Shown one piece after another: positions 9,526 through 60,557 of a stretch of DNA of 64,000 bases. Numbering within the stretch: the first letter of the stretch is position 1; every line of letters begins with the position of its first letter. Both the position numbers and the translations under genes were made by a program. Below the pieces are notes generated by a model, which had not been told where the DNA came from, did not search any database, and worked only from the letters and a program-made list of their open reading frames with translations. Source of the stretch: Phycisphaerae bacterium (GTDB lineage Bacteria; Planctomycetota; Phycisphaerae; Sedimentisphaerales; SM23-30); the NCBI GenBank assembly GCA_016342495.1, contig JAEIOG010000008.1, forward strand, positions 1 to 64,000. Reading direction: 5' to 3'.

Positions 9526-11445
9526 ATGAAAAATTTGATTTTTACTCTTATTCTCAGCATTATTTTTCTTAACAATTCTTTTAGTTTTGCCGCTTCCGAA
9601 CCAGATTTTCCCGGTAAAGTCTCCGATTTCCATGGATATGTCCGACATGACTTCCAATTCCAATCACACAATTGTATCATCGTCGAGCCCAAAACTCCAG
9701 CCGATGGCAATCCCTGGATTTGGCGGGCCCGCTTCTTTGGCCACGAACCTCAAACGGACAAATGTCTTTTGGCCCGTGGCTTCCACGTTGCTTTCATCGA
9801 TTGCCCCGACATGTTTGGCTCTCCCAATGCCGTCAAACTATGGGACGACTATTATAATTATCTGACCACCAAATTCAAATTCAATAAAAAACCCGCACTG
9901 GAGGGCATGAGCCGTGGCGGTTTATTTGTCTTTAATTGGGCCAAAGCCAACCCCGATAAGGTTTCCTGTATTTATGCCGATGCTCCCGTTTGTGATATCA
10001 GCAGTTGGCCCAGCTCTCAACGCAAAGTTTTATGGCAGGCCGCTCTCAAACAATATAATCTTACCGACCAAACCGTCGCCACCGCAAAAATTAATCCAAT
10101 AGACAATCTTGAACTCTTAGCTAAAGCTAAAGTCCCAATCCTTATCGTTGCAGGTGATGCCGACCAGGTCGTGCCTATCGAAGCTAATTCTTATATTTTC
10201 CGTGACCGTTACCAAAAACTCGATGGCCCCATCAAAATGATAGTAAAACCTGGCGTTGACCATCATCCCCATAGCCTTAAAGATCCAACCGAAATTGTAA
10301 AATTCATCGTTCAGCACACAAACGATTTAGACCGGATGTATTACATCCGTGACCAACTTCAAAACTCCCGCCTGAAATTCACCCGCGAAAAGAAGGGCAC
10401 CGTAGCCTTTCTGGGTGGCTCAATTACTTACAATCCCGGATGGCGGCCAATGGTTTGCGAATATCTTCAAAAAGAGTTTCCCGACACCGAGTTTACTTTC
10501 ATCGCTGCTGGCATCCCATCGCTTGGTTCTATCCCCGGTACCTTTCGCATGGATCGCGACATCCTTTCCAAAGGCAAAGTTGATCTGCTGTTTCAGGAAG
10601 CTGCCGTAAATGATAAAGTCAACAATCAGAATCCTGACCAGGTTACCTTCGCCATGTCCGGCATCGTTGAACATGCCCGCAGCGTCAATCCGGATATGGA
10701 CATCGTCTTTATGTACTTCGTTGATCCTGAAAAAATGAAATTTTACAATTCTGGCCAATCCTCACCGATTATCGATATTCATGAAAAAGTTGCCAGAAAA
10801 TACCATGTCAGCGGTATCAATCTGGCCCTGGAAGTTACCGACCGTATCAATACCGGCGAATTCACCTGGAAAGATGATTTTAAAAATCTCCATCCATCGC
10901 CATTTGGCCAAAAGATATATTTCAATAGCATCAAACGCTTCCTGGAACTGTGCTGGGCCAATCCCATTAAGTCATCTGACCGGATCATTGCCCATCAAAC
11001 CCCGCACACACCCAATTCATATAATCAGGCTCGGCTGGCCGATGTCCATGAAAACTGGCAGTCCGATGGTTTCAAAGTCGTCGAAAACTTCAAACCCACC
11101 GATGCCGCTACCCGCGATGGTTTTGTAAATATCCCTGTCCTGGAAGCCACTGAAACCGGCGCCGAACTTAAATACCAATTTAAAGGAAATGCCATTGGCC
11201 TGTTTGTCATTTGTGGCCCTGACGCCGGCAAAGCCCAGTATTCCATTGATGGCAAGCAATACCCCATTATCGATTTTTTTACACCATGGAGCCGTGGCCT
11301 TCATTTGCCTCGCGCCTATGTCTTAGCCGATGAACTCAGCGATGGCTCACATGAACTCATCTTAAAAATGATAGAAGACCAAAACCCAAGAAGCAAAGGC
11401 CACGCCTGCCGTATCGCTCATTTCCTGGTAAATTCCCCTAGGTAG
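9526..11445 (+). CDS. Secreted two-domain esterase with an N-terminal alpha/beta-hydrolase domain and a C-terminal SGNH/GDSL hydrolase domain (probable carbohydrate esterase)
   Basis: Signal peptide 'MKNLIFTLILSIIFLNNSFSFAASE'. 'LIVAGDADQVVP' is an alpha/beta hydrolase motif, and 'VAFLGGSITYNPGW' is the SGNH block-I GDS-like motif. Confidence 0.65.
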   Translation: MKNLIFTLILSIIFLNNSFSFAASEPDFPGKVSDFHGYVRHDFQFQSHNCIIVEPKTPADGNPWIWRARFFGHEPQTDKCLLARGFHVAFIDCPDMFGSPNAVKLWDDYYNYLTTKFKFNKKPALEGMSRGGLFVFNWAKANPDKVSCIYADAPVCDISSWPSSQRKVLWQAALKQYNLTDQTVATAKINPIDNLELLAKAKVPILIVAGDADQVVPIEANSYIFRDRYQKLDGPIKMIVKPGVDHHPHSLKDPTEIVKFIVQHTNDLDRMYYIRDQLQNSRLKFTREKKGTVAFLGGSITYNPGWRPMVCEYLQKEFPDTEFTFIAAGIPSLGSIPGTFRMDRDILSKGKVDLLFQEAAVNDKVNNQNPDQVTFAMSGIVEHARSVNPDMDIVFMYFVDPEKMKFYNSGQSSPIIDIHEKVARKYHVSGINLALEVTDRINTGEFTWKDDFKNLHPSPFGQKIYFNSIKRFLELCWANPIKSSDRIIAHQTPHTPNSYNQARLADVHENWQSDGFKVVENFKPTDAATRDGFVNIPVLEATETGAELKYQFKGNAIGLFVICGPDAGKAQYSIDGKQYPIIDFFTPWSRGLHLPRAYVLADELSDGSHELILKMIEDQNPRSKGHACRIAHFLVNSPR

Positions 11446-12022
11446 AAACAACTTCCACCATATTCATATAACACACATGTAGAGACAAGGCATGCCTTGT
11501 CTTTGACCAACCTTAAGGTGGCAAGGGTCCGCCAATAAGCGACCCCTTGGCCTGTATGCCGCCGTCAATGATGTTGTTAATCTTTCTGGATGGCTAATAA
11601 AATCTGCGCAATCCGCATGTGAGCAAGTTTATTTAGCGGCAAACCTAAAGTTATATTCGATATACACTTAACAAATGATTCATGCTAAAATTAAGTCTTC
11701 CGGGCTTGTAGTCACCAAATAACCATAAAAACCCAGCCCAACCAGTGATAATCAAAAACCAATTGCTTCAAAACAGGCTCTGCCAGCTTAAAAACCCACA
11801 AAACCATTTAAGTAATCATTAGCTCTTGCCCAATCAAATCTGCTCGATCCGTTAAAATTCGTGTCCTATTCTTATATTTTCCCCGCCACTAAAAAATCTC
11901 ACTCACATCCGCATTCTATATAAGTTATTTCACTAATTTTATACCAAATAATGCCCGATAAGAAATAATAACTATGTATCCCCGATATTTTTATCTCAGC
12001 AAATAAATGAAAGCAATTTATC

Positions 12023-34949: not shown

Positions 34950-35300
34950 TAATAAATGCTGGTATTGTAATTGACCAGTGTTATCGCTTAGGCATCCGTC
35001 GGTATGCAGAGACGTTGCATGCAAAGTCTCTGCAGTTGTGTCCAGCACAATAGACATCCGACAGCGCGGGCATGGCCCACCCTGCAAAACTGGTAACTGG
35101 TAATTAGTTATCGCTAATGGGATAAGAGACAAGCAGGATGCTTGTCCTACAGATGGGTCCCTCGCCAGCTACATCCAGACGGTCCAAGGCGGCAACGACG
35201 CCGGTACATCCACCAACCAATGATGCTTATGTAAGTTATGTCCAGCTTCAAGCTGGTAGGGTAGAGACGTTGCATGCAACGTCTCTACTACAGTATTGTG
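34950..35300. repeat. Copy A of a composite palindrome-rich repeat element, in the same orientation as copy C at 57590-58065 and inverted relative to copy B at 55305-55830
   Basis: Shared blocks with copy C are 'gctggtatt..ttgac', 'gacaagcaggatgcttg', 'ggcggcaacg.cgccgg...ccaacca.tgat.cttatgtaag' and 'CCAGCTTCAAGCTGG'. The hairpin 'tagagacgttgcatgcaacgtctcta' is shared with copy B. Confidence 0.7.
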
Positions 35301-35461
35301 TTCAGGGAAATAAACACCCTGCAACATGGCATAGGCCATAATCAGCGTGGGATACTTGGTTTAGGGCCAGCTTCTGGCAGAGCCGACTCAGGGCAATCGC
35401 ATGAAATTTTCATCCCTGTTTGTGGGTTAAAATCGATGCTAAATCAAAAAAGTTGACCTTG

Positions 35462-35543
35462 TCATCCCCGCGCAGGCGGGGATCCAGGAGATGCAAGCCA
35501 TGATTTTAGCTCGAAAACTGGATTCCCGCCTGCGTGGGAATGA
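35462..35543. promoter_or_regulatory. Pair of GC-rich hairpins in mutually inverted orientation, located between repeat copy A and the LRR gene
   Basis: 'CCCCGCGCAGGCGGGG' and 'TTCCCGCCTGCGTGGGAA' are separated by about 40 nt. Confidence 0.4.
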
Positions 35544-35645
35544 CACAATGAAATTTCATGCGTTAGCCCTGGAGCCGACTTGCAAGCCCTTGACATAGTC
35601 CTAATTAACCAGTACAATAACCCTATCGGACGTTAAAACCATAAA

Positions 35646-36326
35646 TTGAAAGGACAAAAACCAATGAAAAAAATCTTAGGGATTATCTTAATATCCATCA
35701 TAGCTTTGTTTGTACTAGATCATATTTTAGTCTATTATTTTGTGTATGACGCCACAGGTGGTTCCCTATCGAATACCGATCCCGGCCAACAAGCCGCTTA
35801 TGACAAGGCCCTAACCTTAATCGAGAAGGCCAAAGCCGACAATGACATCTCGCTGAGCCTTAGTCATTCAGGTTTGACCCAAGTACCGCCAGAGATAGGT
35901 GAGCTTACTTCTATGGAATGGCTGGACCTTAGCAATAATGCTCTAACTGCTTTGCCACCGGAGATAGGTGAGCTTGATTCGCTGAAATACCTGTATCTAT
36001 ATGATAATGCCATAACCAGCTTCCCGACAGATATCAGTGAGCTTACTTCCCTGGTAATGCTTGTTCTGCATGAGAATGAACTTACCAGCCTGCCAGAAGA
36101 AATGGCCAACCTTACTTCACTCAACCAGCTGTACCTCAATGACAATAAGCTGAAAGTTTTGCCCCAGTGGATTACCCAGCTGGATATGGAAATAGTCTGG
36201 GAAGATAAATCTTATAGAGGTAAAGGCATCAATGTCTATGGCAACCCTTTAGAAGAACCACCAATCGAAGTCGTCAAGCAAGGCAAAGCCGCTATTAAAG
36301 CCTGGTTCGATGAGAAGAATAAGTAA
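35646..36326 (+). CDS. Leucine-rich-repeat protein, single module: an N-terminal TM/signal, 'AAYDKAL' helix, about six LRRs (LxxLxLxxNxLtxLPxEIgxLtsL) and a conserved C-terminal cap 'WITQLDMEIVWE..GINVYGNPLEEPPIEVVKQGKAAIKAWF'
   Basis: LRR consensus repeats 'LEWLDLSNNALTALPPEIGELDSLKYLYLYDNAITSFPTDISELTSLVMLVLHENELTSLPEEMANLTSLNQLYLNDNKLKVLP'. Confidence 0.8.
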   Translation: MKGQKPMKKILGIILISIIALFVLDHILVYYFVYDATGGSLSNTDPGQQAAYDKALTLIEKAKADNDISLSLSHSGLTQVPPEIGELTSMEWLDLSNNALTALPPEIGELDSLKYLYLYDNAITSFPTDISELTSLVMLVLHENELTSLPEEMANLTSLNQLYLNDNKLKVLPQWITQLDMEIVWEDKSYRGKGINVYGNPLEEPPIEVVKQGKAAIKAWFDEKNK

Positions 36327-53353: not shown

Positions 53354-55207
53354 TCATTTCTCCGCGGCTAAATAAAGCTTGACCCGGCAGTCAATAAGAT
53401 TATCTTTGGCCTTCACTGATTTATCAGTGATATTAAACTGCCAGCCGGCTTTGCCATCAGTCAGCATAACCACGGTATTTAACGTGATAAGGGCTACCAG
53501 CGGCTTATCGGTTTCGGCCAGCACCTTCATAATGGTCGGGCGCGGGTCAGCAGCACCGGTAAGACCCAGGAATTCGGCTGCCCGAACCTTCACCAGCTCA
53601 TTATCATCCTTTTCAGCGATGGCTTTGGCCTTATCATAGAAGTCCGCTGCCTGATTGCCAAAACAGCTGCACACGATTAAGGCCCAGTAACGCTTGAATG
53701 GATCCTTATCTGCCAGTGCCCGGTCAATACCAGCTTTGGCCTTGTCATAATCTTCCAATGCCAGGTCCGCCACATCGATTAATTCGGCGATACGTCCCTT
53801 ATTTTTTATTCCAAAGGCGATCGGATCGCCAAAGGCATGCTCACAGAGATAACTTTCCGGGAAGAAACTCAAATCCGGCAATGCCTTAGCCTGATTTTGC
53901 AGTTTGCCGCGTAGCTGAGCTAACACATCTCGATAAGCCGGATCCTTAGCGAGGTTCTTAACTTCATAGGGATCCTTAACCACATCGAATAAAGTCTCCG
54001 GATCACGGCCCAAAAAGAACTGGCTTTGCACTTCATTGAGTTTACCAGCTTTATAAAGCTCTCTCCATTCCTGATAAGCGATCATTTTATAGCGATAATT
54101 ATTCTGCAGGGCATCGAAATTAAAACCCTGATAGTTGCGATGATACTTAAATTGACCCTTCCGGACAGTTCGCACCATATCATACTTTTCATCAAAGCGG
54201 TCAGCGATCCCATAAGCTTCATCCTGCCGAGCAACAGCTTTGATATCGACCTTAGGTCCCAGGAAAGGCTTGCCATCAGCTAACTCAGGAATCTTAACAC
54301 CGGCCAGATTCAATGCCGTTGGGGCCATATCGATAAAATTGACAAAGCCATCGAATCTTGTACCTGCCTTTAAGTCGATCAGATGCCTGAAATTAGCCGG
54401 GATCCGCATGACCATCGGCACATGCAGCCCGGTTTCATAGAGATAACCCTTGCTGCGTGGGGTAACTCCGCCATGATCGCCAAAATAAAAGATGAAAGTA
54501 TCTTCCAGAACGCCCTGAGCCTCTAATTTAGCGACCATTTCACCAATTTGCTCATCGAGAATCTCATGATGCTTGTAATATTGATTATAAGTCTTGCGGA
54601 AAACCTCGGTGTCAGGGTAATGAGGGGGAAGTTTAATATCTTTATTGTCGATACCGGTCTTGCCGGCCTTTTGCAGCGGTCCTTCATGGGTAATAGCGAA
54701 CTGATGTTGATGGAAAAACGGCTGGCCGGGCTGCCGGCCTTGCCAGGTTTTATTGGAGTCAAAGACATCTTTGCCCCAGTTAAAGTTAAAATCGGTCTTA
54801 CGAAAATAAGAAGTATAATAACCGGCCTGCTTCAGATAAGCCGGAAAGGGCTTTAGGCCATCGGGCAGCTCAACTGGCTGATATTTACGGTGATAATGGA
54901 TCGCCAGCTTATTAGGATAGCAGCCAGTGATCAAGGTAGACCTTGCCGCCGAGCAGACCGGGCAATTGGAAAAGGCATGGTCAAAGATAACACCCTTGCC
55001 GGCGAGCTTATTGACATTGGGCATATCCACACCATCTCTATTATAGATATTGCAGAAGTGTTGGGAATTATCTTCGGATATCAGCCAGACTATATTAGGC
55101 CTTTTACCCTTGATCGGGCTCTGGCTGAAGCAATTATCAGAGCCCAGTAGAACGGCACCCAGGCTCAAACCGGCCATTTTAATGAATTGACGACGACTAT
55201 TTGGCAT
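53354..55207 (-). CDS. Cys-type sulfatase (arylsulfatase family) with a Tat-like signal and a C-terminal HEAT/ARM-like extension
   Basis: 'MPNSRRQFIKMAGLSLGAVLL' and 'PNIVWLISEDNS...CPVCSAARSTLITG' give a C-x-A-x-R FGly motif variant. 617 aa. Confidence 0.75.
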   Translation of the reverse strand: MPNSRRQFIKMAGLSLGAVLLGSDNCFSQSPIKGKRPNIVWLISEDNSQHFCNIYNRDGVDMPNVNKLAGKGVIFDHAFSNCPVCSAARSTLITGCYPNKLAIHYHRKYQPVELPDGLKPFPAYLKQAGYYTSYFRKTDFNFNWGKDVFDSNKTWQGRQPGQPFFHQHQFAITHEGPLQKAGKTGIDNKDIKLPPHYPDTEVFRKTYNQYYKHHEILDEQIGEMVAKLEAQGVLEDTFIFYFGDHGGVTPRSKGYLYETGLHVPMVMRIPANFRHLIDLKAGTRFDGFVNFIDMAPTALNLAGVKIPELADGKPFLGPKVDIKAVARQDEAYGIADRFDEKYDMVRTVRKGQFKYHRNYQGFNFDALQNNYRYKMIAYQEWRELYKAGKLNEVQSQFFLGRDPETLFDVVKDPYEVKNLAKDPAYRDVLAQLRGKLQNQAKALPDLSFFPESYLCEHAFGDPIAFGIKNKGRIAELIDVADLALEDYDKAKAGIDRALADKDPFKRYWALIVCSCFGNQAADFYDKAKAIAEKDDNELVKVRAAEFLGLTGAADPRPTIMKVLAETDKPLVALITLNTVVMLTDGKAGWQFNITDKSVKAKDNLIDCRVKLYLAAEK

Positions 55208-55304
55208 ATTTTACTCCTTTAACGGTGAAAAAGTGGCTTCGATATAGAGGATATTTCTCCAAAGACCCCAATTTGCCCAAAAATCCCCTCAAAATTAATA
55301 ATAA

Positions 55305-55830
55305 TCCAGCTTAAAGCTGGACATAACTTACATAAGGATCATTGGTCGCCAGCTTGAAGCTGGACACAGCTTACATAAGGATCATGGTCGGTGGGTACTC
55401 CCGCTTCCGTTGGTCGCTGCATCAGCCAGAACGTCATAAGCGGGGGACAAATGTTGATGCGGCCGTGACACATTTTGTAGAGAGTTTGCATGCAACGTCT
55501 CCACCCCCGGCCAGATGCCAGTCGCCAGAAACACCGGTCAAATACAATACCGGCATTATGAATCATTCAATATGTAGGACAAGCATCTTGCTTGTCATTT
55601 ATCCCCAGGCACCAGCACAATGAAACCAATATCAAGCAGGATGCTCGACCTACTTTGCCCAATGCAGGTTGAACCTGCTTACAACTTACATAAGGATCAT
55701 GGTCGGTGGGAGCTCCCGCTTCCGTTGGTCGCTGCTGCCGGCAGAACGTCACAGGCGGGGGACAAATGTTGATGCGGCCGTGACATATTTGTAGAGACAA
55801 GGCACCCCTTGTCTCAGCTTCCGGCTAAAT
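55305..55830. repeat. Copy B of the composite palindrome-rich repeat element (about 1.4 tandem units), inverted relative to copies A and C and directly 5' of the minus-strand sulfatase gene
   Basis: A 120-bp block 'cttacataaggatcatggtcggtggg..ctcccgcttccgttggtcgctgc...gcgggggacaaatgttgatgcggccgtgaca.attttgtagaga' occurs at 55371 and 55685. The palindromes are CCAGCTTAAAGCTGG and CCAGCTTGAAGCTGG. The reverse complement aligns with 57700-58060. Confidence 0.75.
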
Positions 55831-56043
55831 GTCAGGCAACTTAAGATAAAAGCAGGGGCGCAGAAGGTATAAGTTAATCCATTTAAAATAGAAATCTCCC
55901 ACCAACTGACAAATTCGGCTTTGCTAAGGCACAGATTTGGCGGATTTAATACTTGAAAACATCAAAGTGAGGAGTTAGTATTGATAAACCAGTTAAGAAT
56001 AAGTCAACCGTTGAGCAGTTTGGCTTAACAAAGGAACAAAGCT

Positions 56044-56670
56044 ATGGGAATAACGGAATCAAACATTTACCTAATATTCACTTTCATACTAGTTATCCTG
56101 ACAGCTAACATCAAATCCTTCAAGGATTGTTCGCTAGAGCCTGTCCGTTGGTATGATCTGACTGTATCGTCATGGATAATAGTGGCTATTATGTGCCTGC
56201 CACATAATATGCCCGGACATTTCACTTTCGTTGTCTGCTTTATGGTGGTGATGTATTTGTTATCCCTGCTTTTATGGCGATTTATGTTGCTATTTACCAA
56301 TGATCGTTCGCTTCAACGTCGCTGTTTGCCTTTACTTCGCATAATCAGCAGTGTTTTCATTTTTATCATAATGGTTTTATGGTCACAGCTGGCTTTTGCC
56401 GATGCCAAAGACTTCGCCGATGCCACTGCCCGAGAGCTTCAGGCTCAGATAGAAACTCAAGGCAGCTGTCCGGAGACTATCGATGGCTGGCAATCGGATT
56501 TAGGAAACCACCTTATCGCCTGGCATGGCAGCTATGGAATCAAATACCCTGTAAGATGCTTCTTGGATGACAGCGAAGACAGCTTCACAATCTTTATCAG
56601 TCAACATTTTGGCGAGAAATATATAATAACCGGCGGACTAAACAACAAATTATACTATGCCACCGAGTGA
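56044..56670 (+). CDS. Hypothetical membrane protein, paralog 1 (208 aa), with N-terminal TM helices and a conserved C-terminal 'AFADAKDFADATARELQAQIETQGSCPETIDGWQSD' domain
   Basis: It is 55-60% identical to the adjacent ORF, and the upstream 40 bp including the RBS region is also duplicated. Confidence 0.6.
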   Translation: MGITESNIYLIFTFILVILTANIKSFKDCSLEPVRWYDLTVSSWIIVAIMCLPHNMPGHFTFVVCFMVVMYLLSLLLWRFMLLFTNDRSLQRRCLPLLRIISSVFIFIIMVLWSQLAFADAKDFADATARELQAQIETQGSCPETIDGWQSDLGNHLIAWHGSYGIKYPVRCFLDDSEDSFTIFISQHFGEKYIITGGLNNKLYYATE

Positions 56671-56757
56671 GTGGATTAATTAAAAGCAAAGTTATCCGCA
56701 GATATACGCAGAATATGTCAACCGTTGATTATTTTGGCTTAACAAAGGAGTTTAGCT

Positions 56758-57384
56758 ATGGATATAATGGAAGTATCATTTTACATATTAATATTTTTTG
56801 TGTTAGTTATTCTGGTATTTTACATAAGATCAATCAAAAATCACCAGCAGGAGCCCATCGGCTTGCTTCATCTGACAATACCAACTTTGCTAATACTCGC
56901 TTTCATTGGGCTTCCGCATAATATGCCTGGACTTTGGATTTTCGCAGGTTACTTCTTGGCTGTAATGTGGGTGCTTTCCCTGCTGCTGATGCGTTGGGTG
57001 CGGTCTTTAACTGATGCTCGCCCACTTCTGCGGCGCCATATTTCCTCTGTTCATGCGTTTATGAGCATTTTAATCTTTATCATAATGCTCTTATGGGCGC
57101 AGCTGGCTTATGCCGATGCCAAAGACTTCGCCGATGCCACCGCCCGGAAGATACAAGCTCAGATAGAAACCGAAGGCAGCTGCCCGGAGACTATCGATGG
57201 CTGGCAATCGGATTCAGGGGGATTCCTTAGCACCTGGCATGGCCGCTATGGAATAAAATTCCCTGTAAACTACACCTTAAACGAAAGCAAAGACTGCTTC
57301 ACAATCAGCATCGTACCCCATATTGCCCAACGCTATACAATAACCGGCGGCCCGAACCGCAAATTACATTATGCCACCGAGTAA
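56758..57384 (+). CDS. Hypothetical membrane protein, paralog 2 (208 aa)
   Basis: Tandem duplicate of 56044-56670. The motif 'TTATCCGCAGA' follows both genes. Confidence 0.6.
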   Translation: MDIMEVSFYILIFFVLVILVFYIRSIKNHQQEPIGLLHLTIPTLLILAFIGLPHNMPGLWIFAGYFLAVMWVLSLLLMRWVRSLTDARPLLRRHISSVHAFMSILIFIIMLLWAQLAYADAKDFADATARKIQAQIETEGSCPETIDGWQSDSGGFLSTWHGRYGIKFPVNYTLNESKDCFTISIVPHIAQRYTITGGPNRKLHYATE

Positions 57385-57589
57385 GTGGATTAATTAAAAA
57401 CAAATATTATCCGCAGACTGGCATAGCCAGCTTTACAAAGGGCATAGCCAGCTTTACTGAGACACAGATAAGACATCGGCGACCGCCGCTGAAATACGAA
57501 AATATATAAAATTCATCTTCGCTGCTGTTAAGCAGCTCTTATCTGCGTTCATCTGCGGATAAAAGTAATGATTTAATTAAAGACCCTGT

Positions 57590-58065
57590 CCCCCGCATCC
57601 GACGTTCAGCCGGATGCAGGCGGCAACGCCGCCGGTGGCACTTGCCAACCAGTGATTCTTATGTAAGGAGGGTGCAGGCTCAGCCTGTTGTGTGCAGGTT
57701 CAAGCTGGAGGGTGCAGGCTCAGCCTGCATTGGGCCAAGTAGGTCGAGCATCCTGCTTGACATTGGTTTTATTGTGCTGTTGCCTGGGGAAAAATGACAA
57801 GCAGGATGCTTGCGCTACTTATTGAATGAATCATAACGCTGGTATTCTATTTGACATTTGTCTCTGGTGCTCGACATCTGGCCGGATGCCCAGACAAGGG
57901 GTGCCTTGTCTCTACCAAATATGTCACGGGCGAATTAATATTTTCCCTCGGCCTGCGACGTTCTGGCTGATGCAGGCGGCAACGCCGCCGATAGCACTTG
58001 CCAACCAGTGATTCTTATGTAAGGAGGGTGCAGGCTCAGCCTGTTGTGTGCAGGCTCAGCCTGGT
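57590..58065. repeat. Copy C of the composite repeat element (about 1.35 tandem units), upstream of the triple-module LRR gene
   Basis: 'ccggatgcaggcggcaacgccgccg.t.gcacttgccaaccagtgattcttatgtaaggagggtgcaggctcagcctg' occurs at 57610 and 57960. The CAGGCTCAGCCTG palindrome occurs three times, along with the hairpin 'agacaaggggtgccttgtct'. Confidence 0.75.
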
Positions 58066-58072
58066 TGGGTTA

Positions 58073-58198
58073 AAAGTGAACTTGATTCTGGCAAAAGTGA
58101 ATTCAATTCTGTCAAAAGTGAGTTCAATTATGTTAGAAGTGAATTCAATTCTGTCGAAAGTGAACTTGATTCTGTCAGAAGTGAACTTGATTATTACT
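58073..58198. repeat. Six tandem copies of a 21-bp unit (consensus AAAGTGAAYTYRATTCTGTCR), with no spacers
   Basis: The units begin at 58073, 58094, 58115, 58136, 58157 and 58178, with 2-5 mismatches each. Confidence 0.8.
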
Positions 58199-58487
58199 CT
58201 TTTAAGCATGATTTTGCCTGTTTCGAAGGGGGAAATGGCTGTTTTACGCTGAAATCCGGCTTTTATTTATCGGTCCGGGCCGCTGGCGGGGGCATTGGCG
58301 GCTCTTTGACGCTGATTTGTGGCTGACTTTAAGATATTATTGAAGATTCCTGCTGGGCCGGCCTTGATTGTGGCGGTTGGGCAGGGTTGATCGTACCAGT
58401 TTTTTTCTATTGCATAGCAGTATGGCCCGGTTTATAATCTCCCTGCGGCAGAAATGAAGCTTAACGGCCCCCAGCGGAGATCAAACC

Positions 58488-60557
58488 ATGACCAAATATG
58501 TAAGCCAAAGCATAATAGCGATTATCGCAGCAACAATCATGCTCGCCTTAACCTCCTGTGACAGTAAAAGCGAACCCTTCAATATCAGCTCATCGGAAGA
58601 TGTTGCTCAAAAAAATGATACAATGACACTTAGGCAACAGGCGGCTTATGATAAAGCCCTGCTTATGATTAAGCAGGCAAAAGTCAATAAAGCTAACATG
58701 CTCAACATTTTTTCTATAGACCTTACAAAAGTGCCGAACGAGATATCCCAGCTCTATGAACTAAAGGAACTATATATTTCCTGTAATCCATTATTAAGTT
58801 TACCACTTGAGATCGGCAATTTAACAGCATTGAGATCTTGTTTTATTACTTATAACGATCTGATAGCCTTACCTCCTGAGATTGGCCAGCTTAGTAACCT
58901 CGAAGAATTAAGTTTTACCGGTAATAGCTTAAATTATCTTCCTGCTGAGATCGGTGAGTTATCCAATCTGGAATTTTTATATCTTGATGATAATAATCTA
59001 ACCAGCCTACCCGAGGAAATCAGGCAGTTAACTAACCTTAGAATTCTGGATCTTAGTAATAATAAACTTACAATCCTGCCTCGCTGGATTACTGAAATGG
59101 ATATGAATATTCGCTGGGGGACTGGCTTTGTAGTTAAAGGCATCAACCTCTACGGCAACCCTCTTCAAGAGCCGCCGATAGATATTGTGATGCAGGGCAA
59201 GGAAGCGATTAAGCAGTATTTTGCGGATAAGGAAGCAACCGCAAAAGCTGGTGATGATGTTAAAGAAGCTAAGATGATCGCCGAAGAGCGTGCGGCCTAT
59301 GATAAAGCTCTCAGCGAGATTAAAAAGGCTAAAGATGAAAATGCCATTTATCTGTGGCTGCATGAAATACCTCTTAGCAAGTTACCGCCGGAGATTGGTG
59401 AACTTATCTGGCTGGAGAAATTGTTTATTTTTAAAACTGAGCTATCCAGTTTACCGCCAGAAATCGGGCAATTGACTGCATTGAAGCAGCTTGCTGTTCA
59501 TGACAATCAGCTGACTGGTTTACCGAAGGAGATTGGCCAGCTTAATCGCCTTGAAATCTTCTCTGTGGAAGATAATCGTCTGACTTGTCTGCCGGCTGAG
59601 ATCGGAAAGTTGACTGCTCTGCAAGAGTTGAGGCTTTGCAATAATAAACTAAACAGCATTCCCGATCAAATCAGCCAGCTGGCTAACCTTAGATGTCTTG
59701 ATCTTAGGGGTAATGAGCTTAAGAGTTTACCTGGCTGGATTACGGAAATGGATATGAAGATTCTCTGGGGAGAACATGGGAATTTTAAAGGCATAAACCT
59801 CTACGGCAACCCTCTTCAAGAGCCACCGATTGAGATTGTCAAACAGGGCAGGGCCGCTATAAAGCAATATTTTGGAATTGATGATGCAGGTTTTCCAGCA
59901 AGCATTGTCCAGAGAAAAGCTAAGATAGCAGCTAAACAGCAAATGGCCTATGATAAAGCTCTCAAGAAGATTAAAAAGGCCAAGGCTGAAAATGTCACAA
60001 CACTATATCTATCTGGAATGGACCTGATAAAGTTGCCGGCCGAGATTGGTGAGCTCACCGAGCTGGAAAAGCTGGTTATTTTTAAAACTGAGTTATCCAG
60101 TTTACCGCCTCAGATCGGTAAGTTGACTGCATTGAAAAACCTTGATGTCAGTTTCAACCAGCTGACTTGTTTACCGCCAGAGATTGGTCAGCTCAGCAAC
60201 CTTGAAACCTTGTTTGTTGAAGATAGTAATCTGACTTGTCTGCCGGCTGAGATCGAAAAGTTGTCTAACCTGCAAGAATTGATGCTTAGTAATAATAAAC
60301 TAACCAGTCTTCCCGAGGAAATTACCCGGTTGACTAACCTTAAACGCGTACATCTGTTAAATAATAAACTCAAAACCCTGCCGGTCTGGATTACCGAAAT
60401 GGATATGGCGATCATCTGGGATAAATCCGATGCATCTGAAGCCATTTTCCTCTACGGCAACCCGCTGGAAGAACCGCCGATTGAGATTGTCAAACAGGGC
60501 AATGCCGCTATTAGGCGGTATTTTGAGGATAAGGGCGAGGGAAAGCCTCGGGAGTAA
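58488..60557 (+). CDS. Leucine-rich-repeat protein built of three tandem copies of the module found in the 226-aa LRR protein. Each copy has the AAYDKAL helix, about six LRRs and a WITEMDM...GINLYGNPLQEPPIEIVKQG..AIKQYF cap.
   Basis: The module boundaries lie near residues 45, 260 and 470. The LRR consensus 'L..L.L..N.L..LP.EIGQL..L' occurs more than 18 times. The N-terminus 'MTKYVSQSIIAIIAATIMLALTSCD' is lipoprotein-like. Confidence 0.8.
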   Translation: MTKYVSQSIIAIIAATIMLALTSCDSKSEPFNISSSEDVAQKNDTMTLRQQAAYDKALLMIKQAKVNKANMLNIFSIDLTKVPNEISQLYELKELYISCNPLLSLPLEIGNLTALRSCFITYNDLIALPPEIGQLSNLEELSFTGNSLNYLPAEIGELSNLEFLYLDDNNLTSLPEEIRQLTNLRILDLSNNKLTILPRWITEMDMNIRWGTGFVVKGINLYGNPLQEPPIDIVMQGKEAIKQYFADKEATAKAGDDVKEAKMIAEERAAYDKALSEIKKAKDENAIYLWLHEIPLSKLPPEIGELIWLEKLFIFKTELSSLPPEIGQLTALKQLAVHDNQLTGLPKEIGQLNRLEIFSVEDNRLTCLPAEIGKLTALQELRLCNNKLNSIPDQISQLANLRCLDLRGNELKSLPGWITEMDMKILWGEHGNFKGINLYGNPLQEPPIEIVKQGRAAIKQYFGIDDAGFPASIVQRKAKIAAKQQMAYDKALKKIKKAKAENVTTLYLSGMDLIKLPAEIGELTELEKLVIFKTELSSLPPQIGKLTALKNLDVSFNQLTCLPPEIGQLSNLETLFVEDSNLTCLPAEIEKLSNLQELMLSNNKLTSLPEEITRLTNLKRVHLLNNKLKTLPVWITEMDMAIIWDKSDASEAIFLYGNPLEEPPIEIVKQGNAAIRRYFEDKGEGKPRE

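Follow-up and report, generated by a model that had tools for sequence, protein, structure and literature searches.

The 64,000-nucleotide (nt) stretch analyzed here (the window) comprises positions 1 to 64,000 of contig JAEIOG010000008.1 from a Phycisphaerae metagenome-assembled genome (MAG; GCA_016342495.1). Toward its right end, two copies of an intergenic repeat stand in opposite orientation around a 1.7-kb segment that carries two tandem paralogous genes (56044-56670 and 56758-57384, both on the plus strand). The left copy, B (55305-55838), reads on the minus strand and the right copy, C (57575-58065), on the plus strand; both are clusters of hairpins resembling repetitive extragenic palindromic (REP) sequences. 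A third copy, A (34950-35300, plus strand), lies ~20 kb from the other two, unpaired, in the intergenic space upstream of a leucine-rich repeat (LRR) gene at 35646, and contains the same modules in another order. The pair is flanked by a minus-strand sulfatase gene, whose start at 55207 is faced by the palindromic end of B in its minus-strand reading, and by an LRR lipoprotein-like gene at 58488, which is faced by the palindromic end of C. Other neighbors encode radical-SAM enzymes, a beta-eliminating lyase, and a DNA methylase.

A blastn comparison of 55281-55850 with the window aligned B and C as reverse complements over 310 nt at 78% identity (55370-55678 against 58023-57714, E 2e-68), with a second match of 171 nt at 75% identity. 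In addition, a repeat search of the window returned an inverted pair of arms, 55385-55678 and 57714-58007, that are 78% complementary over 294 nt. The inverted similarity reported in the first-pass annotation of this DNA is therefore real, and it appears as an inverted alignment when the window is compared with itself; the stretch of C quoted there also matches, but it starts at 57714, ~17 nt away from the position given. Each copy had been described as ~1.4 tandem units. Both are indeed partial tandem arrays, but of ~1.7 units in B (period 315 nt; 55350-55475 and 55665-55790 are 88% identical) and of ~1.35 units in C (period 356 nt; 57590-57708 and 57946-58064 are 90-93% identical). Identity is thus 88-93% within a locus and 75-78% between B and C. 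Because copies within a locus are much closer than B is to C, the two appear to be old copies that expanded separately, and the local tandem duplication that each possesses marks them as independent copies rather than as two ends of one unit. An assembly artifact as the origin of the pair is excluded, since the copies are diverged and not identical.

Inverted repeats that bracket two membrane-protein genes can in principle support inversion, and an invertible, phase-variable segment was among the readings first proposed. Under this reading, B and C would be substrates for homologous recombination or for a recombinase encoded elsewhere. We consider it very unlikely. Pfam searches of nearly all large open reading frames (ORFs) of the 64 kb detected no recombinase, transposase, or Y1 transposase domain, and no serine or tyrosine recombinase in particular, which extends to the whole window the earlier remark that no such enzyme is encoded nearby. 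Furthermore, the two arms differ from each other by 22-25%, and no uninterrupted identity between them is longer than 24 bases. Judged from RecA substrates and mismatch-repair barriers, a run of this length does not exceed the minimal efficient processing segment. Known invertons have short, near-perfect inverted repeats, usually with the recombinase gene adjacent. There would also be no obvious switching of a promoter, as both genes would move along with their own upstream region.

The repeat unit is a mosaic of three hairpin modules, which we call X, R, and Y. In the orientation of C, a unit starts with an R doublet and continues through ~80 nt of "mid" segment to an X palindrome. A "tail" of ~115 nt follows, closing with the invariant core CTTATGTAAG, and one to three Y palindromes complete the unit. 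The window holds six X, five R, and nine Y copies at four loci, all of them intergenic, and a GTAG tetranucleotide sits directly at the 5' foot of the stem in five of the six X copies and in every R copy (5/5). Intact X and R copies have DNA folding z scores of -2.4 to -6.9. Perfect hairpins with a stem of at least 7 bp are concentrated in the repeats, with 11 of the 17 in intergenic DNA of the window falling within A, B, or C; across the whole window there are 38 perfect hairpins, compared to 18.6 +/- 4.0 in shuffled sequences.

Module X is a 28-nt palindrome of the form GTAG-AGAC-nnnn-CATG/CACC-nnnn-GTCT-CTAC. Two versions of its inner stem occur, X1 (GTTG/CAAC) and X2 (AAGG/CCTT); the 4 bp that are swapped between them are all compensated. 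The copy in A, GTAGAGACGTTGCATGCAACGTCTCTAC (35261-35288, no strand assigned), is a perfect 28-nt double-foot X1 with a DNA folding z score of -6.9. Of the palindromes quoted in the first-pass annotation, which are present, the 22-mer GAGACGTTGCATGCAACGTCTC is perfect only here (35264-35285); in B it has two mismatches (55480-55501). These belong to a decayed X1 (GTAGAGAGTTTGCATGCAACGTCTCCAC, 55477-55504, plus strand) that has two mismatches in its stem and scarcely folds. In the adjoining tandem copy of B, the same position in the unit is occupied by an X2 (GTAG-AGACAAGGCACCCCTTGTCT, 55791-55814, plus strand), so that two tandem copies with flanks that are 88% identical carry, at the same site, a decayed X1 in one case and an X2 in the other. 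The X2 of C (57892-57915, minus strand) is the exact 24-nt reverse complement of the X2 at 55791-55814. Finally, a lone X2-type copy (GTAG-AGACAAGGCATGCCTTGTCT, 11479-11506, plus strand) stands outside any unit, 34 nt downstream of a gene at 9526-11445.

A pairwise MAFFT alignment of B and C shows that the tail also contains a stem, which is formed by CCCGCTT/AAGCGGG in B and by GGCGGC/GCCGCC in C; A has the version of C. Together with the exchange of X1 and X2, these differing stems indicate that local palindromy has been conserved, not one global fold. This bears on whether each ~330-nt unit could be a structured noncoding RNA gene or a long structured leader. The units do fold better than shuffled sequences (z scores of -4.8, -3.2, and -2.6) and local stems are conserved, but the local palindromes account for the excess stability. 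Moreover, the predicted global folds differ among A, B, and C, the order of modules differs in A, stems at homologous positions differ between B and C, and X1 and X2 are interchangeable. No Rfam family matched the window at gathering thresholds, and at E values up to 10 only chance miRNA-like matches to hairpins were obtained. A single conserved structured RNA, as considered in the first-pass annotation, thus finds no support, and we regard an RNA gene or leader as extremely unlikely. Two coding interpretations were also rejected. Short ORFs run through B and C (e.g., 55339-55566 and 57826-58011), but a scarcity of indels is all that keeps their frame, and the exchange of X1 for X2 falls within it; the other idea, that the unit is a decayed RayT gene, was met by a negative six-frame profile search.

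Module R is a 23-nt hairpin, GTAG-GACAAGCA-TCC-TGCTTGTC. In both B and C two inverted copies stand head-to-head, 28 nt apart and with their GTAG feet on the outside, so that the doublet forms one long hairpin. The doublet of B (55574-55653, no strand assigned) has two GTAG-footed hairpins and a DNA folding z score of -2.3; that of C (57739-57818, no strand assigned) has 28-nt arms that are 86% complementary and a z score of -5.8. With its GTAG foot and its head-to-head doublets, R has the defining features of a REP and of a REPIN-like element (REP doublet forming a hairpin). A carries a single R (35128-35150, minus strand), and its position in the unit differs from that in B and C. The modules therefore move independently of one another, as is evident from the lone X at 11.5 kb, from the shifted R in A, and from the swap of X1 and X2 at one site.

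The 15-nt palindrome that makes up module Y comes in three versions, with compensatory changes at three of seven stem pairs among eight distinct copies; 94.6% of cells in the alignment are paired, compared to 82% in shuffled sequences. Y copies occur in arrays. A three-Y array of the GTGCAGGCTCAGCCTG type (57672-57728, plus strand) has a period of 20 nt and a middle Y that is a hybrid of two Y types, a two-Y array forms the outer end of C (58028-58064, plus strand), and two repeats of Y (CCAGCTTNAAGCTGG) plus the CTTATGTAAG core, with a period of 43, form the outer end of B (55306-55390, minus strand).

The position of these arrays raises the question of function. The clusters, or the Y arrays within them, could be cis-regulatory or structural for the outward-facing genes (sulfatase and LRR lipoproteins), serving as operator-like arrays, as insulating or stabilizing hairpins, or as sites for nucleoid proteins. 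In all three copies the CTTATGTAAG core and Y are proximal to the start of the next gene (35646 for A, 55207 for B, and 58488 for C), the 20-nt period corresponds to about two helical turns, and the Y palindromes of B lie ~100-155 bp upstream of the sulfatase ATG. In the parts of Di Nocera et al. (2013, PMC3733652) that deal with Escherichia coli, such functions are credited to REPs and to bacterial interspersed mosaic elements (BIMEs). Nevertheless, the shared polarity has a chance probability of ~0.25, and the distance from the end of the repeat to the start codon varies from ~100 to ~420 bp. The half-sites of Y differ by compensatory changes, which would maintain a hairpin and not a sequence recognized by a protein. 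In addition, the consensus promoter of the LRR gene at 35646 is outside copy A, and no regulator is encoded near the clusters. We therefore think that a cis role is unlikely; it would be a domesticated function, which is compatible with a REP origin. Scans for promoters and terminators were little informative; apart from weak cases, the hairpins have no T-runs.

Evidence on where such hairpins come from is provided by module X. A scan of the JGI metagenomes with a degenerate X pattern (256 sequence variants) gave matches at 120 or more loci, on contigs of 27-67% GC with unrelated flanks, and the pattern also matched 35 viral (IMG/VR) contigs. Nearly all of the listed metagenome matches are perfect palindromes, with 119 in the GTTG/CAAC form and 87 in the AAGG/CCTT form (both strands counted); the few others are further fully compensated forms. 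Among the listed matches, 92 of 138 copies fall outside crude ORF calls, 19 lie between convergent ORFs, and 6 lie between divergent ones. Clustering of the ORFs at the listed loci yielded one recurrent family of ~200 amino acids (aa), found in 13 of these listed loci. In most of these 13, X is inside the gene and in frame, and in two it is just outside. When the proteins are aligned, X falls after the HUH motif MPNHIHGI and before the segment SYKS…WQxRF[YH]DHIIR…YIxNNP. The X-bearing proteins match NF047646 (NCBIfam "REP-associated tyrosine transposase") at an E value of 1e-16, which is below the curated cut-off, and show a weak match to PF01797. A profile search retrieved at least 7999 relatives, which carry the JGI name "REP element-mobilizing transposase RayT" and include sequences from Bacteroidota, Cyanobacteria, and other groups. 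Of the 40 relatives fetched, ~35 contain the peptide that X encodes, VETLHATSL, or one very similar to it.

This arrangement of X with RayT is already published. The passages of Quentin et al. (2018, PMC6006769) on TnpA_Y1 subclass 2.4 give as its signature NH[IFV]H, WQ, and YIxNNP in proteins of ~194 aa, which the X-bearing metagenome genes also show, and they note short repeats in a variable insertion of this subclass. Judged by its sequence, X is a member of a known REP class, that is, a "double-foot" REP of the RayT/TnpA_REP subclass 2.4 kind. Neither the X 22-mers nor the X-encoded peptides were found in any paper of the literature searched.

Several other observations concern X. The 28-nt palindromes GTAGAGACGTTGCATGCAACGTCTCTAC and GTAGAGACAAGGCATGCCTTGTCTCTAC recur identically in contigs of 27-67% GC with unrelated flanks, as well as in the 35 IMG/VR contigs. 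Bases flanking X often lengthen the palindrome by 4-6 bp (e.g., at metagenome loci L012, L078, and L096), as if X had been placed inside preexisting hairpins such as terminators. In RayT subclass 2.4 genes, the linker near the embedded REP contains partial tandem duplications of a REP arm (VETLHVETLHVETLHATSL and VETLQVKTLQVKTLHATSL) along with low-complexity short repeats around the REP; this was seen at L016:3879-4562, L035:4991-5590, L045:3079-3783, and L104:580-1302 (proteins P0123, P0135, P0147, and P0153). It suggests repeated slippage, or cleavage and rejoining, at the site of the embedded REP. Finally, metagenome locus L056 (3950-4266) has five X1 copies, 73-74 nt apart, in a tandem array at the end of the contig, with a period of ~147 and two alternating flanks.

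For the core of the unit, a 29-nt pattern that matches all six copies in the window was scanned against 596 Gb of genomes, where it gave one match at chance level, on a Peptococcaceae contig, and no related copy; there was no match in the JGI metagenomes. The 764 kb of X-bearing metagenome loci contain no R, Y, core, or tail, and R had no match in the viral contigs scanned. The sulfatase shares 64% identity with its closest homologue, and at the locus of that homologue there is no synteny and no copy of the repeat. As far as searches of these collections reach, R, Y, core, and tail would therefore be lineage specific.

Taken together, our results suggest that B and C are probably diverged, opposite-orientation copies of a lineage-specific intergenic repeat, a BIME-like mosaic of REP-type hairpins that was spread in trans. 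They are most likely clusters of REP elements, intergenic DNA of a familiar sort that is either selfish or domesticated, rather than a dedicated DNA switch or transposon. Under this interpretation, the X, R, and Y hairpins would be nonautonomous, and a RayT-type Y1 (HUH) transposase with its gene in another part of the genome would cut and paste them in single-stranded form. They may have piled up at the same intergenic sites by repeated insertion, after which each cluster would have been enlarged by local tandem duplication. The inverted layout around the orphan genes would then be incidental, with each cluster occupying the intergenic space beside an outward-facing gene. Any effect on the cell, through hairpins in transcripts or through the binding of proteins, would have a secondary place, as with the REPs and BIMEs of E. 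coli. Mobilization in trans had been one of several options offered in the first-pass annotation, next to an invertible segment, a cassette resembling a composite transposon, a recombination hotspot, and a protein-binding array or structured RNA, and it is the one that we favor, given that X is a bona fide REP with relatives inside RayT-type Y1 transposase genes and that R has a GTAG foot and head-to-head doublets. The observation made in that annotation is confirmed, and its interpretation is partly supported.

Some of our findings argue against such an origin. Only three repeat loci were seen within the 64 kb, and a six-frame profile search of the window found no RayT (best E 0.026). The foot of Y is GTGC, GTCC, or GTAA, which departs from the canonical GT[AG]G. 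About two-thirds of the unit is nonpalindromic (the CTTATGTAAG core, the 115-nt tail, and the 80-nt mid segment) and is conserved among A, B, and C, which means that simple REP insertion alone is not a sufficient explanation. B lies between divergently transcribed genes, while REPs are usually located downstream of genes in the sections of Di Nocera et al. (2013, PMC3733652) that describe their placement. Lastly, A, B, and C share one polarity toward the next gene, which is expected by chance in about 1 in 4 cases and is a possible hint of function. A less ordinary interpretation is that the ~330-nt unit is an undescribed nonautonomous element that carries REPs of several classes as interchangeable cargo and always inserts in the same orientation ahead of genes whose proteins are secreted, or that the inverted pair of clusters allows a RayT-type enzyme or recombination to flip or move the cassette. 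To this we give little credence.

As stated in the first-pass annotation, the two genes between the clusters are tandem paralogues; their proteins are 54% identical, their DNA is 72% identical across 711 nt, and the unit of tandem duplication is ~714 bp. Conservation is uneven, with ~80% nucleotide identity over the C-terminal ~90 aa and far greater divergence in the N-terminal membrane part. The first gene encodes an orphan protein of 208 aa with four predicted transmembrane helices and a small beta domain, and the second likewise encodes 208 aa. Neither has a Pfam domain. Paralogue 1 is identical to the deposited Phycisphaerae MAG protein JEZ07_02580, and apart from this deposited copy no homologue of either paralogue was found among 5.8 billion proteins. 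In an AlphaFold model of the cargo protein, of low to moderate confidence (pLDDT 67), a small beta domain accompanies four long helices; no PDB fold matched the model below an E value of 0.28.

Orphan cargo within a symmetrical layout, where the Y palindromes of B and C point outward and the truncated ends of their units inward, is what one might expect of a composite transposon or a cassette-like mobile unit with inverted clusters as its ends. Yet no transposase is encoded in the window, and there is no direct repeat or target-site duplication at the outer junctions (55305 and 58065). The ends are only 78% identical, copy A occurs singly, and the core pattern has no related copy in the genomes and metagenomes searched. 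Furthermore, at 42.3% GC the inner segment is no different from the window, which averages 42.9%. We give almost no weight to a mobile unit of this kind. Along with the invertible segment, it was among the readings first proposed for this locus, and both lack support, given that no enzyme was detected in the 64 kb, that the long arms are diverged, that a target-site duplication is missing, that copy A is unpaired, and that B and C each have a local tandem duplication of their own.

Other repeats occur in the same neighborhood. Downstream of paralogue 2, a ~190-bp insert (57390-57580) has inverted ends, TTAATTAA…TTATCCGCAGA and TCTGCGGATAA…TTAATTAA, and looks like a small insertion resembling a miniature inverted-repeat transposable element (MITE) or a long terminator hairpin; a related inverted-repeat pair is at 56692-56712 and 57542-57562. 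At the equivalent site behind paralogue 1, only the left end of the insert is present. A 21-bp tandem repeat (58069-58194; ~5.5-6 copies, 81% matches, consensus AAAAGTGAACTCAATTCTGTC, 31% GC) starts right after the last Y of C, ~300 bp upstream of the LRR gene, and in one frame it would read as a repeat of the heptad peptide VKSEFNS within a GTG-start ORF (58048-58326); it may be coding or may be a binding array. The LRR gene itself (58488-60557) contains three internal repeats of 651 bp that are 70-86% identical, amounting to a triplicated LRR module in one ORF. Beside copy A (35382-35580) there is a second type of REP, a head-to-head dimer of GTCATYCCCRCGCAGGCGGGRATCCAG (35461-35487 and 35518-35544) that resembles the CGTC-1/dRS3 class and is nested in an inverted repeat (35389-35409 and 35551-35571, 90% complementary). 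Its presence implies that the genome carries several REP families.

If our interpretation is correct, the locus is an elaborate but ordinary case of intergenic DNA of the REP/BIME type, from a lineage that has been sampled little. It would place a double-foot REP of RayT subclass 2.4 in a Phycisphaerae MAG, and it would show that REPs of different classes can stack up in one composite repeat. In addition, the replacement of X1 and X2 by one another at one site in neighboring tandem copies would bear on the turnover of REPs. It opens no new question, and the locus would gain greater weight only if the enclosed cassette inverts or moves.

When set against known systems, the locus shares with invertons the inverted repeats around a segment of ~1.7 kb. 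Unlike invertons, it has no recombinase in the 64 kb, and its arms are long and diverged rather than short and near perfect. It departs from composite transposons and MITEs in lacking a target-site duplication and a transposase and in having ends that are 78% identical, and it corresponds to no structured RNA family known to Rfam. The likeness to REPs is much closer. X resembles the double-foot REPs of RayT/TnpA_REP subclass 2.4, which we take to be the same as Bertels group 4. As these are portrayed in the relevant parts of Quentin et al. (2018, PMC6006769), they have, like X, a 5' GTAG and a 3' CTAC around a long perfect stem, and they are reported mainly from Cyanobacteria and Bacteroidetes and as "scattered" in other phyla. 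Here, X is seen without a cognate RayT in 64 kb, and unlike plain subclass 2.4 REPs, it is one of several modules within a larger lineage-specific repeat.

Module R has its counterpart among the GTAG-tagged REPs that Di Nocera et al. (2013, PMC3733652) report, in the sections on these families, from Planctomycetes and other members of the Planctomycetes-Verrucomicrobia-Chlamydiae group. These can form head-to-head dimers 20-100 bp apart, as does R, whose 23-nt GTAG-footed hairpins lie head-to-head with a 28-nt spacer and form a long hairpin. The same sections describe REP clusters in which dimers plus flanking DNA are tandemly reiterated, as in B and C, and the coexistence of several REP families in the planctomycete R. 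baltica, which is also the case here; unlike the usual GTAG REPs, B is between divergent genes and not downstream of genes. Both X and R share with the GTAG superfamily of REPs a palindrome of 20-40 bp, a GT[AG]G foot, and an extragenic site. REPINs, reportedly introduced by Bertels and Rainey in 2011, have the inverted-pair layout seen in the R doublets, of which there are two, plus one singlet, within the 64 kb. The system as a whole has no sequence relationship to the BIMEs of E. coli or to the Neisseria intergenic mosaic elements (NIMEs), and its unit is much longer (315-356 nt) and includes large nonpalindromic conserved segments. In its layout, it is likewise a mosaic of intergenic arrays in which palindromic units alternate with conserved motifs and vary by locus in number and order. 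In keeping with a BIME-like organization, A, B, and C each have their own arrangement and number of modules, and X1 and X2 have been swapped at a single site.

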